Part shown: positions 8,463 to 27,971 of the stretch, piece by piece
Layout: every line of letters starts with the position of its first letter
Position numbering within the stretch: the first letter of the stretch is position 1
Source of the DNA: an uncultured Candidatus Actinomarina sp.
GTDB taxonomy: Bacteria; Actinomycetota; Acidimicrobiia; Actinomarinales; Actinomarinaceae
Length of the DNA stretch: 64,000 bases
Direction of reading: 5' to 3'
Assembly (NCBI GenBank): GCA_902613615.1
Contig: CACMHQ010000001.1
Location: 204,567-268,566 of the forward strand
The notes under the pieces: generated by a model
Told to the model about the DNA's origin: nothing
The model's input: the letters and a program-made list of their open reading frames with translations, nothing else
Database searches by the model: none
Program-made: the position numbers and the translations under genes

Positions 8463-9441
8463 GTTTTATATTTGGACCGTTTCTTACCACGGTATTCCAT
8501 AGTGTTGAATAATGATCAAGGTCTTCAGGATTTACATGAGGAAGAACCATATTTTTCCATGTTTCATGCAAAGGATCTGAAGCATTTTTGTACAAATCTA
8601 ATCCAACGGGAATTCTTTCTACAACTGTTCTAAGACTCATTGGTGTTTCAATATTGATGCTTATGTCATCAGATAAAAATGAGTTATTAATTTCAATAGC
8701 CAATTTGATTATTAGATCTGTGAATTCATTTTGTAATTTTGGATATCGTTTTTTAAATATTGATTCAAGCTGTTCTTTGTTAGGAAAAGGTTTATCCCAA
8801 ATAACCCATCGATCAGCAAATGCTTTGTTTAGAGTTTGTGTTCCTGCATAATCCCTTAAGCTCGTTGGATTCATTGTTCCAAAAATATATGAATCATTTC
8901 TTAATTCAATTACTTCTCCATTAGGAAGCTCTAGTTTTTTGTGTCTATCTAATAGTGAATGTAAAGCAAATAAAACTTCTGGTCCAGCTGCATTTAATTC
9001 TGATAGATTAATAATGGAAGGTCCTCTTAGTGCTCTGGTTAATTCGCCATCCTGCCATTTGGAATCTGTTCCACCAACTCCATCTCCATATAATTGAACT
9101 GAACCAAGTAAAGTCACGTCTCTAACTTCACCTGATAAAGGAATCCGATAGTATGGATAATTTAATTTTGCAGCTAATTGCTCTATATCGTGATCCTTAC
9201 CTGTTCCCATATGTCCTTTAAGTGCAATATGAATCGGGATTTCATTTTTAAACGTATCTTCTTTGCTCTTAATAATTTGAGCTAATTTATATTGAATTCC
9301 AAAGTCTACATAATTTTTATCTAACTCAGGTATCCGTTCGGCTCTAGATTCATAATCAGGAATTGATTTTGATAGCTTACATTCATTTAGCTTTATATCG
9401 CCCTTACCAGTTGGGTTTTTAAATATTTGTTCAGCCATCAA
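8452..9441 (-). CDS. CobS-like AAA+ (MoxR/dynein-related AAA_5) ATPase
   Basis: Walker A in GHMGTGKDHDIEQLAAKLNYPYYRIPL parallels CobS GYHGTGKSTHIEQVAARLNWP. The 329-aa size is as in CobS. Overlaps the upstream VWA gene by 4 bp. Confidence 0.75.
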   Translation of the reverse strand: MMAEQIFKNPTGKGDIKLNECKLSKSIPDYESRAERIPELDKNYVDFGIQYKLAQIIKSKEDTFKNEIPIHIALKGHMGTGKDHDIEQLAAKLNYPYYRIPLSGEVRDVTLLGSVQLYGDGVGGTDSKWQDGELTRALRGPSIINLSELNAAGPEVLFALHSLLDRHKKLELPNGEVIELRNDSYIFGTMNPTSLRDYAGTQTLNKAFADRWVIWDKPFPNKEQLESIFKKRYPKLQNEFTDLIIKLAIEINNSFLSDDISINIETPMSLRTVVERIPVGLDLYKNASDPLHETWKNMVLPHVNPEDLDHYSTLWNTVVRNGPNIKPSL

Positions 9442-11390
9442 GCCACTCCTGTAGATTCTTCAATATTCTTTATAAGTATATCCTTTGTGATGTTTACTAT
9501 TGAATGAATTAACTCTTCAGGTTCATTTATCTGGGTCTTATTGATATATTCTTTCCAAGTGCCTCTTTCTCCAATACCTATCCCAATTACATCAATCCCA
9601 ACTTTGGAAGCATAATTGATAGAACTTTTTAAATCCTCAAGTGATCCTCTTGTCATACCGTCTGACAGTACTGCTAAAAGTTTTGTTTTAGAACCTTTTT
9701 CTAGAAGTCTTTTTGTAGAAAACATTATATTTCTTTCGTCAACATTGGTTCCTCTTTCAAACATGCTTGCAGGAGGGTGATCCAAATTAGATTCTATTTT
9801 GTCTAATGACTCCCTTAAGTTTCTTGAAAATTCAATTAAACCTATAAACTTTTCATAATTTTCTTTCCATGAATCATCAAACTTTTTAATAAAATAATGA
9901 TTTGTTGTATTGAAGTAATATTCAGCATTCGATCCATAATTTGTATTTAGCATCGAGGAAACAGCCATCTTTCTTTTTAAATATAATTCTTCATTTTCTA
10001 ATTCATCTGCCGCAAAGCTCCTATTAAAAATTGCTACTTCAAAATCAATATCTAATTCATGGCAGATTTGTGCAAGATAACTTGCTCCTATTAATGCCGC
10101 TGAGAGAGACCAGGGATAGAAATCACCTTTATCTCTTTCAAGCATTGATCCACTTCCATCAATTAGTAAAGATACTGCATAAGATTTGTTTGAAAGCCTT
10201 TGTTTTTGTTCAAACATTCTTTCATACCTACCTGATGCAAGCATTAAAGGAACATGTGGTGATAAATCTCCCTGATCATAACCACTGATTCTGAGCCTTT
10301 TTTTGTTATGTATAAAGTAAGGTTTTATTTTGTTTGTAACTTTGAATACGGGGAGATCCCATTCTTCCAAGAGGGAGTTATAAGTATTTAAGCCATTTGT
10401 ATATAAATTTTTAAATGATTTTGGTAAATTAGTACTCAGTAATTTTGATACTTTACCATTTGGAAGATAGACGGTTGAGGATGTTCCAACTTTTGAAACA
10501 TGATCATCCATAAAGTTAAGCTTTTCATCTTCTGAATCTGCACCCTTTTTACCTAAGAATTTTTCTAAGGTATTACCTGAAGTAATGTTTGTACTAGAAG
10601 GAATTAAGACTTTGTTTAAATCGTCAATTACGGAGTCTTCAAAATTTTCTATTGATTCTCTACGTTCTCCCAATGTTTGGTTATCAACATCTGGTAATAG
10701 ATTGTATCTTCTACAAATATCTGTAATTTCTATCGTTATATCAATAGTGTCTTCTATCAAGTTTTTATCATATGAAAAATTATCTAATACTCTTAAAGTC
10801 TCTTTTAAGGGTTCTTTAATATTTTTTGGATACTTTTCTATATCTAATTCAACATATCCTGTGATGTTATGAAAAAGCAATGTTAAAAATTTATTGAAAG
10901 GCTTTAAATTTTTTATGTTGATACTAGATTCTTTATAAATATCCTCGAGGATTGATCTAAGCCCGTTAAAGTTTTTTACAAATTGAAACTCATCATAGGA
11001 ATGTACAAGTATTTCAAAAATGTATTTTCCAAATGGACCCGCGAGAACTTCAAGAACTTCATCAACGTTAGTTAACCCTTCAGTGTCATCTTTATATTTT
11101 GTGAGATCTTCATCAACATTGAAATTATATTCTTCCATAGAATGTATAGCCTCATGAACTACAGTTCCAATTATTAATTCCTTAAATTCAAGTTCTGAAT
11201 CTGAAACTGCATTAACCAAAATAGATGGATTTATGTTTATCTCGTTTTTGTTTTTGCTTTTAGTTTTACCTAGATTAATGACGATATTTGCATTATCAGT
11301 TTCGGATTGTATTAGTCGTGTAATTGCTGGACTAATTTTTTGAAATATTTCAATAATTTGAGTTTCTAAAGTTTTTTTCTTAAATTCCAT
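9438..11390 (-). CDS. CobT-like von Willebrand factor A (VWA) protein with N-terminal HExxH motif
   Basis: MIDAS LLIDGSGSM, LLAVLSDGM and VIGIGIG in the C-terminal third are CobT/NorD-like. VVHEAIHSMEE lies near the N-terminus. Length is 650 aa. Confidence 0.7.
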   Translation of the reverse strand: MEFKKKTLETQIIEIFQKISPAITRLIQSETDNANIVINLGKTKSKNKNEININPSILVNAVSDSELEFKELIIGTVVHEAIHSMEEYNFNVDEDLTKYKDDTEGLTNVDEVLEVLAGPFGKYIFEILVHSYDEFQFVKNFNGLRSILEDIYKESSINIKNLKPFNKFLTLLFHNITGYVELDIEKYPKNIKEPLKETLRVLDNFSYDKNLIEDTIDITIEITDICRRYNLLPDVDNQTLGERRESIENFEDSVIDDLNKVLIPSSTNITSGNTLEKFLGKKGADSEDEKLNFMDDHVSKVGTSSTVYLPNGKVSKLLSTNLPKSFKNLYTNGLNTYNSLLEEWDLPVFKVTNKIKPYFIHNKKRLRISGYDQGDLSPHVPLMLASGRYERMFEQKQRLSNKSYAVSLLIDGSGSMLERDKGDFYPWSLSAALIGASYLAQICHELDIDFEVAIFNRSFAADELENEELYLKRKMAVSSMLNTNYGSNAEYYFNTTNHYFIKKFDDSWKENYEKFIGLIEFSRNLRESLDKIESNLDHPPASMFERGTNVDERNIMFSTKRLLEKGSKTKLLAVLSDGMTRGSLEDLKSSINYASKVGIDVIGIGIGERGTWKEYINKTQINEPEELIHSIVNITKDILIKNIEESTGVA

Positions 11391-11431
11391 TTTTTATCAT
11401 TATCATTAAAGACTGATAATACAAGTATAAG

Positions 11432-12190
11432 GTGAATATTAAGTTGAATGAAATTGCAAACAAGACTGTAATCGTTTCCGGTGGTAAAGGAAGCATGGGA
11501 GTGATGGTCTCAAATTTTATTAATGATCTAGATGATTTTGAAGTAATTGGGATAATTGATCCTGGAGAAAATGACTCAACATTTAAGAACTTTTTGATAT
11601 CAGATGATCTTGTATGTGACTATATTTTTGAATTTGCTCCAGCATCTGTTGTTAATGAAAATATTAAGATTCTTGTAAATAACGATGCCAAATTAATAAT
11701 TGGATCATCAGGTGTGAATGATGAATCAATTAAACTATTAAAAAATTCTGAAAAAGGAGTTGCACTTATTCCTAATTTTTCAGCGGGTGCAGCTTTCCAA
11801 AAAGTTTTTTCTGAGCAGTTATCAAATACATTTAAGAATGTACACATAGTAGAAAAACATCATTCAAATAAGGAAGATGCACCATCTGGAACTTCAAAAG
11901 ATGTTGCTTCAAGTTTAGAAATGATGAACTCAGAAGATATAGAGGGGGACTATTTTGCAAAAACAGAGGAAAATTCAATCAATATTTACTCATTAAGGTC
12001 GGATGATTATCTAGCTGAACAAGAAGTCGTATTTTCTAATACTTTTGAAGAATTTATTCTTGATCATAAAGTTAATGATAGAAAAGCATATTTAACAGGT
12101 ATCGAGATAGTATTACGTGAAATGGAAAATCTGAATTCTTATGTTTATGGACTTGAAACTCTTATGAAAGAAGCAATGGACCGATCATGA
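11432..12190 (+). CDS. dapB: 4-hydroxy-tetrahydrodipicolinate reductase
   Basis: E-HH-K-DAPSGT motif (VEKHHSNKEDAPSGTS). GTG start. Its stop overlaps the dapA start (ATGA). Confidence 0.8.
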   Translation: MNIKLNEIANKTVIVSGGKGSMGVMVSNFINDLDDFEVIGIIDPGENDSTFKNFLISDDLVCDYIFEFAPASVVNENIKILVNNDAKLIIGSSGVNDESIKLLKNSEKGVALIPNFSAGAAFQKVFSEQLSNTFKNVHIVEKHHSNKEDAPSGTSKDVASSLEMMNSEDIEGDYFAKTEENSINIYSLRSDDYLAEQEVVFSNTFEEFILDHKVNDRKAYLTGIEIVLREMENLNSYVYGLETLMKEAMDRS

Positions 12191-19059: not shown

Positions 19060-19521
19060 TTATAAGTCGTTTGGAACGTATCCATATTCTCTTGAAAGAA
19101 TATTTCCATCTGTATCAATAATTAAAGAAATTGGTTGACCAATAATTTTTAAATCATCTCTCATTTCAGATGTAGAAAAACCAATTGTGATTTCGCCTTT
19201 TAGATTTTCTGAAACCCAAGTCATAGTGGAATCTACATCACTATGGGCTAATGCGATTACATCATAGTTTTGGCTAACTGCTGCTAGATTAGCTTCTAAG
19301 AGAGGCAACTCCTCTCTACAAATTCCTCAATAATCAGCCCAGAAAACAACAAGTGTTTTCTTATTAGTTAGGTCTTCGTTTACTAAATTTCCATTTGCAT
19401 CTTCATATACAAGTTGTTCAATTGATGATGCCGCTGCACTTTGTGTTGGTTCATCTGTGGCAGAATCAGATCCTGACGAACAAAAAGATAGTAAAAGTAA
19501 AAGTATGAATGCTTTTCTCAT
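19060..19521 (-). CDS. TlpA/ResA-like thioredoxin-fold lipoprotein with one in-frame TGA at the first active-site Cys position (candidate Sec codon; alternatively a nonsense pseudogene)
   Basis: ORFs 19327..19521 and 19060..19308 share one frame. Read-through gives VVFWADY-[TGA]-GICREELPLLEANL, matching the WxxWCxxCxxElP redoxin motif. The N-terminus has the lipobox LLLSFCSSG. Confidence 0.55.
19299..19317 (-). other. SECIS-like stem-loop 9 nt downstream of the in-frame UGA
   Basis: mRNA AGAGAGG-AGUUG-CCUCUCU forms a perfect 7-bp stem. The apical loop contains G/U and starts 16 nt after the UGA at 19329-19327. Confidence 0.4.
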
Positions 19522-25829: not shown

Positions 25830-26263
25830 GTCCTTTTTGCAACGCAGAAGATACTGCAGTTGTAGATTCAAGAAAAAATGTTGATGGTGACGCTATAAGG
25901 AGGCGTAGACAGTGTTCTGTGTGCAATACAAGGTTCACAACATACGAAAAATCAGAAATTGAACTCATCGTAAAGAAAAGAAATGGTAATTTAGAAGAAT
26001 TTCAGTACGAAAAGCTATTCAGTGGTGTAGAAAATGCTTTTGGAGGACAAGAATTAAGTGATAAAAAATTAAAAAACCTTGTTGAAACTATATATATAGA
26101 TCTAAAGAATCATGGGAAAAAAATTGAAAGCAAAATTATCGGTGAAACTGTTCTTTCACACTTAAAAGACATTAATGAAGTAGCATATCTACGATTTGCA
26201 TCAGTTTATAAGGAATTTTCAGCTGTCTCAGACTTTGAAAAAGAAGCTGCGGAATTAAATTAG
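25823..26263 (+). CDS. nrdR: transcriptional repressor NrdR
   Basis: Zn-ribbon CPFC...CSVC followed by an ATP-cone. Confidence 0.92.
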   Translation: MVCPFCNAEDTAVVDSRKNVDGDAIRRRRQCSVCNTRFTTYEKSEIELIVKKRNGNLEEFQYEKLFSGVENAFGGQELSDKKLKNLVETIYIDLKNHGKKIESKIIGETVLSHLKDINEVAYLRFASVYKEFSAVSDFEKEAAELN

Positions 26264-27321
26264 GGTAAAATTTCTATATTTTCTAATATTTTCGAATAAT
26301 TATCGTTAAAAATCTTTAATGAAGAATTAAAAAAGGCTGTTTCTGTTTCTTTATTTAGTTCGATGGCACTTATTAATGTTAAAGCAACTTCATTTTCGTT
26401 ATTTCTTAAAGATGCAACTAATCGGCCATGAAGGTCTTGAGCTGTAGCTAAAGCAGAATTAACGACTTCTTTATGATCTCTAAATTCTTCTAGATCAGGT
26501 AATGTCTCACCATTTAAATTACTTTTTGCACCAATTAATGACAATTCAGTGGCAAGTGTATCGATATTTGTATCTTCATCTATTTGAAGAATATCATCGT
26601 AAATAAGGATTTCTGAATGCATAATTCTATAAGTAAATAATTGATCGAGCTTATTAACAATATCAAAAAGTGTATCTAATGATGCAGAGACAGTTTCTGA
26701 GTCTGGAATATCTCTATTTTCTAAATTTTCTTGATATTGCAGTAAGGAAGTTTCAATAATCTGTAAATTTGCGCTGGCATTTGATACGTCATAACGGGAA
26801 TAAAAAGGATTAGTTGCAACATCTAATAATTGAGGGATTTGACCAATATTATTATTCGTATTCTCTGTAATTGAAACAGCAATAGTTTCATTTTGAATAT
26901 TATTATTTCGCATATTAATAAAAAACACTGATACAAAACTTATGATGCTTATTGTAGCTATTACTAACAGTGTTGGAACAACCCACTGTCTTCTCATTTC
27001 TAAATCTGTCCAAATTTTCTTTATTTGTGAAGTTATGTTTAATGGAACAAACGTCTGAGTGTCTGGATTAGATTCTTCAATTTCAGGTGTATCAAAAATA
27101 TTCTCTTTCGTCGTAACAAGTTCTCGACCTATTTCTATAGATTCAATCTCTTCATCTACGATCTCAAATTCATTGGTAATTCTTAAATTATCCATCTCTT
27201 TAATAATGTCTGGTGTTTGGATAATTGTTGTATCAGCTTCAAAACCGAGTACATCAAGAATTTTGATTTTATTTGAGGATTTCGCTTTCCTTATAAAAAG
27301 ATAATCTCTAATATTCATCAA
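26260..27321 (-). CDS. hypothetical single-pass membrane protein
   Basis: Acidic N-terminal region, one TM helix (VVPTLLVIATISIISFVSVFFI), and a helical C-terminal region. No family recognised. Confidence 0.4.
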   Translation of the reverse strand: MMNIRDYLFIRKAKSSNKIKILDVLGFEADTTIIQTPDIIKEMDNLRITNEFEIVDEEIESIEIGRELVTTKENIFDTPEIEESNPDTQTFVPLNITSQIKKIWTDLEMRRQWVVPTLLVIATISIISFVSVFFINMRNNNIQNETIAVSITENTNNNIGQIPQLLDVATNPFYSRYDVSNASANLQIIETSLLQYQENLENRDIPDSETVSASLDTLFDIVNKLDQLFTYRIMHSEILIYDDILQIDEDTNIDTLATELSLIGAKSNLNGETLPDLEEFRDHKEVVNSALATAQDLHGRLVASLRNNENEVALTLISAIELNKETETAFFNSSLKIFNDNYSKILENIEILP

Positions 27322-27334
27322 TGAAAGGTTACCA

Positions 27335-27772
27335 TTGAATAAAAATATTGAGATAGAAATACAACTTATAAACCCAAATGGAAAAGTACCTTCACAAAAG
27401 TATTCGTCCGATATCGGCTATGACATTAGTGCCTCTGATGACGTCACATTAAAATCTAGTGAAGTCACTCTCGTTAATACTGGAATTGCAATAAATCTTC
27501 CACAACAATGTGCAGGTTTTGTTTTACCACGATCTGGACTCTCAACGAAACATAAAATTACTCTTATAAATAGTCCTGGATTAATTGACCCAGGCTATAC
27601 AGGTGAACTATTAGTGCCATTAATAAATCATGGAGTCAAAGACTACGAGATAAAAGCTGGTGATAGAATTGCTCAACTCGTTCTTGTTAATACACATGGT
27701 GTTGATTTTAAAGTAGTCGATTCATTGCCAGAGACAGATAGATCATCTGGTGGTTTTGGATCCACTGATTAA
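27335..27772 (+). CDS. dut: dUTP diphosphatase
   Basis: GYDI, PRSGL, GLIDPGYTGE and C-terminal RSSGGFGSTD motifs. TTG start. Confidence 0.9.
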   Translation: MNKNIEIEIQLINPNGKVPSQKYSSDIGYDISASDDVTLKSSEVTLVNTGIAINLPQQCAGFVLPRSGLSTKHKITLINSPGLIDPGYTGELLVPLINHGVKDYEIKAGDRIAQLVLVNTHGVDFKVVDSLPETDRSSGGFGSTD

Positions 27773-27815: not shown

Positions 27816-27888
27816 GCGGAAGTAGCTCAGCTGGTAGAGCGTAACCTTGCCAAGGTTAAGGCCGCGGGTTCGAACCCCGTCTTCCGCT
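27816..27888 (+). tRNA. tRNA-Gly (GCC)
   Basis: Manual cloverleaf: acceptor GCGGAAG/CTTCCGC, anticodon loop TTGCCAA (GCC at 27849-27851), T-loop TTCGAAC. CCA is not encoded. Confidence 0.9.
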
Positions 27889-27891
27889 CAC

Positions 27892-27962
27892 GGCGACGTG
27901 GCGGAGTGGCTACGCAGAGGTCTGCAAAACCTTGTACACCGGTTCGATTCCGGTCGTCGCCT
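27892..27962 (+). tRNA. tRNA-Cys (GCA)
   Basis: Acceptor GGCGACG/CGTCGCC, anticodon loop CTGCAAA (GCA at 27924-27926), T-loop TTCGATT. Lies 3 nt after tRNA-Gly. Confidence 0.9.
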
Positions 27963-27971
27963 CAAATAAAT

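Follow-up and report, generated by a model that had tools for sequence, protein, structure and literature searches.

Why does a gene for a thiol-disulfide oxidoreductase carry a stop codon where its catalytic cysteine should be, and how is that codon read? The question is raised by a 64,000-nucleotide stretch of DNA from an uncultured Candidatus Actinomarina sp. (contig CACMHQ010000001.1; the whole stretch is referred to here as the window, and coordinates are counted from its first letter). Actinomarina belong to the most numerous photoheterotrophs of the surface ocean. In the window, a gene for a TlpA/ResA-like protein of the thioredoxin fold, referred to here as redoxin, occupies positions 19060..19521 on the reverse strand and is interrupted by a single in-frame TGA. 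An earlier reading made from the sequence of the window alone (the original prediction) had proposed a candidate selenoprotein, in which the TGA encodes selenocysteine (Sec) with the help of a hairpin resembling a selenocysteine insertion sequence (SECIS). Each check that we ran supports this proposal: the TGA is conserved in 112 of 113 orthologues, Sec/Cys pairs occur at the site, and the hairpin covaries. As judged from these sequence comparisons, the TGA very probably encodes Sec as the active-site residue of a thiol-disulfide reductase on the cell surface, which is conserved, with its hairpin, throughout an order of abundant and very small marine bacteria.

The redoxin gene and its in-frame TGA

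The open reading frames (ORFs) 19327..19521 and 19060..19308, both on the reverse strand, share one frame and are split by a lone TGA at 19327-19329. Read-through of this codon, as originally described, was reproduced from the sequence and gives the product MRKAFILLLLLSFCSSGS...KTLVVFWADY-TGA-GICREELPLLEANL...GQPISLIIDTDGNILSREYGYVPNDL. The complete gene consists of 64 codons starting with ATG, the TGA, 88 further codons and a TAA, and corresponds to a protein of 153 residues in which the TGA, the putative Sec codon, specifies residue 65. With a cysteine modeled at the TGA, the protein scored above the Pfam cut-offs for AhpC-TSA (31.6 bits), Redoxin (30.7 bits) and Thioredoxin (27.1 bits).

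The active-site motif of redoxin reads U-G-I-C-R-E-E-L-P (U65-G-I-C68 in window numbering), with U65 at the position of the first, nucleophilic cysteine. Alignment with the sequences of DsbE/TlpA-like structures in the PDB (3gl3, 3ia1 and 2lja) placed the TGA at the first Cys of their WCxxC motif, in agreement with the claim that the stop falls on the nucleophile. The E-x-P sequence downstream and the GxP cis-proline loop of redoxin also match these three structures. The cis-proline codon of the thioredoxin fold (G-Q-P130, 19132..19134, reverse strand) is invariant in the alignments and corresponds to the GxP loop of 3gl3 and 3ia1.

An AlphaFold2 model of a natural Cys form of the protein shows a single thioredoxin fold that spans the TGA position, with a mean predicted local distance difference test score (pLDDT) of 85 and a core above 95. 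The Sec position directly precedes helix α1 in the model (model residues 64–67; helix 65–76). The nearest structures found with Foldseek, those of extracytoplasmic reductases that are membrane-anchored or lipoproteins, were pneumococcal Etrx2, ResA, DsbE, DsbF and DsbE of M. tuberculosis, TlpA, CcmG and StoA, with E-values of ≈1e-9, template modeling (TM) scores of 0.65–0.74 and a shared N-terminal β-hairpin. The hallmarks of the TlpA-like family (cd02966) are all present in redoxin, including the fold with an N-terminal β-hairpin and a central insertion, the active site at helix α1, and the cis-Pro loop.

Conservation of the TGA across Actinomarinales

The comparison was extended to 113 syntenic orthologues, from the window itself, 21 genomes of different species, 80 contigs of a metagenome scan and 11 further assembled contigs. 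The codon is TGA in 112 of these, which stem from independent single-amplified genomes, metagenome-assembled genomes and metagenomes, and TGC in one, at protein identities down to ≈47%; the orthologue comparison that had been suggested for this codon thus turned up no scattered stops or frameshifts. In a scan of one genome per species, the gene was found in 21 genomes, all classified as Candidatus Actinomarina, Actinomarinales or OCS155, with 53–96% protein identity and TGA in 21/21. Metagenomes scanned for the divergent branch yielded 80 further loci that were 52–95% identical to the relative P0121, again with TGA in all of them (80/80). In the metagenome loci, recA-cinA, redoxin and phnD-phnC follow one another as they do in the window, and RecA is ≈90% identical; we therefore consider these loci orthologues. 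Three orthologous loci are on contigs of the AACY02 accession series, which we take to be data from the Sargasso Sea and Global Ocean Sampling (GOS) surveys.

Among 32 distinct full-length redoxin sequences, the ratio of nonsynonymous to synonymous substitution rates (dN/dS) was ≈0.21 before the TGA and ≈0.10 after it, and there was no frameshift and no second stop. The low dN/dS and the intact frame show that the region downstream of the TGA is translated in this frame.

The only syntenic orthologue with TGC (L009:287-745, on LUMQ01006488.1) is nearly identical to the TGA-bearing relative P0023 and retains the hairpin described below, with the loop AGUUA. This reflects a Sec-to-Cys replacement that took place very recently in a natural population, or else an error in the reads or the assembly. 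An exhaustive representative search also yielded natural Cys forms in the FWADY-C-xx-C context, P0126 (FWADYCPTC, with TGC) and P0128 (FWADYCITC, with TGT), which are 40–43% identical. Sec/Cys pairing at the TGA site is seen with L009 (TGC), P0126 (TGC) and P0128 (TGT), as well as with the first Cys of the solved structures. The Cys-form loci L035:117-602, L036:3001-3453 and L038:829-1281 have a different context, in which an 824-residue gene is followed by DUF3566 and then redoxin; they lie on contigs of 35–37% G+C and lack the hairpin.

A conserved hairpin downstream of the TGA

A perfect 7-bp stem begins 9 nt past the TGA (19299..19317, reverse strand). Its 5′ arm AGAGAGG (19311-19317), loop AGUUG (19306-19310) and 3′ arm CCUCUCU (19299-19305) were verified in the sequence, and its calculated free energy (ΔG) in the window is −9.5 kcal/mol. 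The 9-nt spacer between UGA and stem, GGAAUUUGU (19318..19326, reverse strand), includes the codon for the resolving cysteine, Cys68 (TGT, 19318-19320). Spacer length is invariant in all sequences, and its third codon positions vary freely. Across the orthologues, the stem is 6–7 bp long and starts 9–10 nt past the TGA. The conserved 6-bp core (19300-19305 with 19311-19316, reverse strand) is paired in all 73 distinct sequences, that is, in 438 of 438 cells, and the loop is AGUUG or AGUUA (AGUUR) in every sequence that has the hairpin. For 70 of these 73 sequences the ΔG lies between −7.6 and −10.0 kcal/mol; the hairpin is weaker (−5.4 to −5.9 kcal/mol) in L034, L039 and L065.

RNAalifold recovered the same hairpin from the alignments and nothing else that was conserved. 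(An extended lower stem enclosing the UGA, seen in the minimum free energy fold of the single sequence with z = −1.26, was dropped, as it was not conserved in the alignment folds.) None of 500 shuffles reached the observed score for pairing or covariation, and registers slid by 1–3 nt paired in 48–64% of cases. Four of the six core pairs vary among the 73 sequences, as GC/GU, AU/GU/GC, CG (58) or GC (15), and GU/AU/GC, providing the compensatory changes that the original prediction had suggested looking for. Where C-G takes the place of G-C, the protein has Gln or Arg instead of Glu, and Val instead of Leu. Since the compensatory changes in the stem alter amino acids, it is the RNA pairing that is constrained, rather than the peptide. 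Conversely, the hairpin cannot form in the distant Cys forms, including L035, despite the similar peptide IRELPVI encoded there.

Synonymous variation points in the same direction. In a set of 102 sequences, the stem codons are nearly frozen (GAG in 102/102, CCT in 101/102, CGG in 55/55 and GTC in 66/69), and the stem is the least variable stretch of a gene with a mean synonymous entropy of 0.99 bit. Within their codon families in the window, GAG, CCT and CTC account for 21%, 41% and 4%, respectively. A second stretch of low synonymous variability, at codons ≈−26 to −20 from the TGA, appeared in the set of 32 sequences and was gone with 102 sequences, and we ascribe it to a sampling effect.

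Only 21 of the 2812 TGA trinucleotides in the window (0.75%) precede a perfect stem of at least 7 bp that conforms to the spacing and loop rules for SECIS elements, and the hairpin is thus unlikely to have arisen by chance. The published consensus for bacterial SECIS elements has a loop of 3–9 nt that shows G in its first two positions and then G or U, a 4–16 bp upper stem, a distance of 16–37 nt from UGA to loop, and ΔG ≤ −7.5 (PMC13188914). The hairpin agrees with each of these rules, with a distance from UGA to loop of 16 nt, or 17 nt in sequences whose pairing is limited to the 6-bp core. The claim of near-bacterial SECIS geometry thus stands, with the spacing at the lower edge. No Rfam SECIS family was found in the window at the gathering thresholds, where only three tRNAs matched. 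The core sequence of the hairpin, GGAGTTRCC, gave 117 matches, 113 of which were the redoxin gene; the other four had no upstream TGA context.

The N-terminal export signal

The N-terminus of redoxin, MRKAFILLLLLSFC (19480..19521, reverse strand), has the appearance of an export signal, with a charged MRK start and a hydrophobic core. Residues F13, C14 and S15 are invariant in the alignment, with the Cys14 codon at 19480-19482, and the low pLDDT of residues 1–29 would fit a signal peptide followed by a linker. Bacterial lipoboxes follow the pattern [LVI][ASTVI][GAS]C. The box in redoxin reads L-S-F-C, where relatives have IIAC (P0121) or LLSC (P0126), both of them canonical. The original description of redoxin as a lipoprotein fits the signal peptide and the invariant Cys14, but the Phe at −1 of the lipobox departs from the pattern. 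The sequence around Cys14 is probably a lipoprotein signal with a non-canonical lipobox or, alternatively, a signal anchor.

Decoding of the UGA

The tRNA gene selC (anticodon UCA), selA and selD were reported in 84/84 complete Actinomarina genomes in the preprint ‘Actinomarina, resolved’ (10.64898/2026.04.03.716425). The selB gene was described as divergent, being present in all 84 genomes at scores below the profile threshold, and no selenouridine synthase was reported (10.64898/2026.04.03.716425). The same study predicted ≈5 selenoproteins per genome with deep-Sep, naming SelD, a 78-residue protein of unknown function and a K07090 protein, and found no SECIS elements with Rfam models (10.64898/2026.04.03.716425).

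We propose that the conserved UGA redoxin is a selenoprotein, in which the UGA is decoded as Sec at the attacking residue through the SECIS-like hairpin, giving an exported, membrane-anchored reductase of the TlpA/ResA/CcmG type. We put the probability of this reading at roughly 0.88. According to this proposal, the UGA at 19327-19329 would not be read as a stop during translation. The G+C-rich hairpin of 6–7 bp with its AGUUR pentaloop, 9–10 nt downstream, would act as a bacterial SECIS element and recruit SelB-GTP and Sec-tRNA(Sec) to the ribosome, whereupon Sec would be inserted. The finished redoxin would then be exported and tethered to the membrane, probably as a lipoprotein. The U-x-x-C-x-x-E-x-P layout and the structural neighbors suggest that redoxin acts as a reductant, of the ResA/CcmG/TlpA/Etrx type, and not as a DsbA-like oxidant. 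By analogy with the same neighbors, we infer that redoxin would receive electrons from a membrane protein of the CcdA/DsbD type and pass them on to exported disulfides, for example in apocytochrome c, the CuA subunit of cytochrome oxidase, Sco, or surface methionine-sulfoxide reductases.

Several observations weigh against this interpretation. Sec incorporation itself is deduced from the sequence comparisons above. Neither the window nor ≈950 kb of related Actinomarinales DNA, all from the same chromosomal neighborhood, contained a tRNA-Sec, SelA, SelB or SelD, when searched with ARAGORN (window and loci) and with tblastn using E. coli SelA, SelB and SelD from NC_000913; because the DNA searched represents this one neighborhood, the negative result is uninformative for the rest of the genome. 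The evidence for the machinery comes from one unreviewed preprint and applies to the genus Actinomarina, not to the whole order. The swap from G-C to C-G in the stem mostly follows one deep branch split and represents few independent events, and the loop start at 16 nt past the UGA is at the lower limit of the consensus range. The Phe at −1 of the lipobox in Actinomarina is non-canonical. Finally, no redox partner adjoins the redoxin gene in the neighborhood that was surveyed, which also offers no clue to the substrate.

We considered the possibility that the UGA is read through without Sec or a SECIS element, with the hairpin aiding a near-cognate tRNA (Trp or Cys) or slowing termination, so that the protein carries Trp or Cys. 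Sequence data alone do not identify the inserted residue, SelB is reported as divergent in Actinomarina, and the Sec machinery did not turn up in the one neighborhood searched, all of which would be compatible with such a mechanism. However, the site is the catalytic nucleophile and is Cys in relatives, and Trp would inactivate the enzyme. A Cys could be supplied more simply by TGC or TGT, one base away, yet such a codon is found in only 1/113 orthologues. Furthermore, the loop G-U sits where the SECIS consensus requires it, and dedicated Sec genes are reported in every complete Actinomarina genome. Read-through with an ordinary amino acid is thus improbable, even though it fares better than the other alternatives.

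It is also conceivable that the locus makes two products, an exported peptide of 64 residues that stops at the TGA and a protein of 82 residues that starts at an internal TTG at 19308. Both pieces are called as ORFs, and gene callers that use code 11 have deposited fragments of 63 and ≈80 residues (P0125, P0129 and P0130). In the model, however, there is one compact thioredoxin domain, with strand β1 and the active site on opposite sides of the TGA, and a separate downstream product would have no export signal, no nucleophile and no strand β1. The two pieces stand in the same frame relation in every orthologue, and the TTG is part of the hairpin loop. We consider two separate products very unlikely.

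The database translations at first suggest that TGA is reassigned in this organism, either to Trp (code 4) or to Gly (code 25). When the Cys-substituted protein was used as the query, the best 120 full-length relatives (78–96% identity) had Trp at the TGA site in 119 cases (FWADYWGIC) and Cys in one (P0009, from locus L009). However, the DNA of the ‘W’ homologues reads TGA in 9/9 loci checked (L001–L008 and L010), and under code 11 none of these gives a translation corresponding to the query. P0118 has a further W that stands for a TGA, in MINVWEK, a stretch that is out of frame and lies upstream of the gene. The W residues in the databases are there because gene callers picked code 4 on short contigs with a low G+C content of 32%. 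A genuine Trp at the site, which would imply a TGG-to-TGA nonsense mutation, was likewise rejected on the evidence of the nine loci. In the window, TGA ends 8 of the 57 long ORFs, including those at 906-908 and 12188-12190 that had been cited against a global reassignment, and a scan for further window genes interrupted by an in-frame TGA brought up nothing but shadow frames and a single case of two adjacent genes. Reassignment is already refuted by these data, and we give it almost no weight.

The remaining alternative, raised in the original prediction, of a recent TGY-to-TGA nonsense mutation, a pseudogene or an assembly error, with the hairpin a by-product of the peptide REELPLL, draws on the single base that separates TGA from a Cys codon and on the TGC in L009, but is excluded by the comparative sequence data, in which the TGA is common to 112 independent sequences from lineages down to ≈47% identity, the downstream dN/dS is 0.10 with no frameshifts, the stem has rare codons at its frozen synonymous sites, the pairs survive compensatory changes that alter the peptide, and L035 encodes IRELPVI without a hairpin.

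Selenocysteine thus remains the most probable residue at position 65. A more far-reaching proposal, which we put forward tentatively and consider less likely to hold than to fail, is that the Sec-redoxin is a universal, order-wide core selenoprotein and a main reason for the retention of the whole Sec pathway in a 1.1-Mb genome, and that the minimal hairpin (a 6-bp stem with AGUUR, 16–17 nt past the UGA) is the recognition element of the divergent SelB.

Genomic neighborhood

The window has a G+C content of 32%, and the neighbors of the redoxin gene are housekeeping genes and genes for phosphonate transport: dapB, dapA, ftsK, phnEECD, cinA, recA, miaB, miaA, dapF, lexA and nrdR. Two long ORFs in this otherwise well-annotated housekeeping block, 9438-11393 (reverse strand, 651 residues) and 26260-27417 (reverse strand, 385 residues), had no Pfam match at E ≤ 1e-5. 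A tRNA-Gly(GCC)/tRNA-Cys(GCA) pair is located at 27816-27963, ≈8.5 kb from the redoxin gene. Of the 21 species genomes, 18 keep it in this position; for the remaining three, the available flank is too short.

Significance and comparison with known systems

Sec use in Actinomarina was previously reported only in the 2026 preprint, in which few targets were named and no SECIS was found. The redoxin gene provides a functionally interpretable Sec target, a probable extracytoplasmic thiol-disulfide reductase, that is found order-wide. The analysis also provides a compact SECIS motif, comparatively validated and invariant in its AGUUR loop, with which other targets in Actinomarina can be sought. If the hairpin is indeed what the divergent SelB recognizes, it would represent an unusually small class of SECIS elements and could serve as a probe for the rest of the Actinomarina selenoproteome. 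In addition, the locus exposes a systematic error in the databases, where code 4 gives Trp at the catalytic position and code 11 splits the gene, so that the selenoprotein is hidden either way.

The deep-Sep selenoproteome of Actinomarina concerns the same organism, reports the Sec machinery as universal and comprises 69 selenoprotein families (10.64898/2026.04.03.716425). The words ‘thioredoxin’ and ‘redoxin’ are absent from this preprint, and its supplement lists no selenoprotein families (10.64898/2026.04.03.716425).

Among characterized proteins, ResA of Bacillus subtilis, CcmG/DsbE, TlpA of Bradyrhizobium, DsbE and DsbF of M. tuberculosis, and the pneumococcal lipoproteins Etrx1 and Etrx2 have the same fold as redoxin and the extracytoplasmic membrane anchoring that is predicted for it. 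The W-x-x-[WY]-C-x-x-C-x-x-E-x-P layout and the GxP cis-Pro loop are common to redoxin and proteins of the ResA/TlpA/DsbE type. The nucleophile in ResA, CcmG, TlpA, DsbE and Etrx is Cys, whereas in redoxin it is most probably Sec, and redoxin has Tyr instead of Trp just before it. No genes for cytochrome c maturation, Sco or Msr adjoin redoxin. Its scores were far below the NCBIfam equivalog cut-offs for TlpA (NF047696, 36 vs. 230 bits), DsbE (TIGR00385, 32.3 vs. 123 bits), ResA (NF002854, 32.1 vs. 170 bits) and StoA (NF041202, 29 vs. 210 bits). By analogy, redoxin would work like the TlpA, DsbE, ResA and StoA families, and it is a member of none of them.

The existence of NF041054, ‘ResA-like WAxxUGC motif-containing protein’, shows that Sec-containing ResA-like proteins have already been curated. 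As in redoxin, the Sec in this ResA-like family follows W-A-x-x. However, redoxin scored 26.3 bits against a cut-off of 300, the family model has 354 positions compared to the 153 residues of redoxin, and the motif is U-G-C rather than U-G-x-C; redoxin is thus not a member.

Like the bacterial SECIS elements, for which that of E. coli fdhF is the prototype, the hairpin is located in the coding region just after the UGA and has a small apical loop with G then U on its 5′ side and a G+C-rich upper stem. It differs in being very short (6–7 bp with a pentaloop) and in lacking both a bulged U and a conserved lower stem. When numbering starts at the U of the UGA, the loop G-U of the hairpin is at positions 21-22, and that of the fdhF SECIS at positions 23-24.

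Sec-containing thioredoxin-fold oxidoreductases dominate the published marine selenoproteomes, in line with the original description of this class as common in marine metagenomes. The Sargasso Sea study described a ‘thiol-disulfide isomerase-like’ UXXC family with four sequences (PMC1088965), and the GOS study several abundant marine families of Prx-like and Trx-like UxxC proteins (PMC2398784). A 2026 review placed the Sargasso ‘thiol-disulfide isomerase-like’ family in cd02966 (TlpA-like) and listed a separate UGC-containing TlpA family (PMC13188914). These TlpA-like and Prx-like selenoproteins resemble redoxin in having UxxC for CxxC, weak matches to PF00578/PF08534, a surface-ocean origin, Cys homologues and a downstream hairpin, the families having been compared by description only. 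They differ from redoxin in that they were not tied to an organism, whereas redoxin is placed in Actinomarinales, is syntenic across the order and has a defined SECIS consensus. Genes of this kind, encoding TlpA-like UxxC selenoproteins from marine metagenomes, were thus already known; what is new here is the assignment to Actinomarinales, the order-wide conservation and synteny, the defined SECIS, and the exposure of the code-4 mistranslation.

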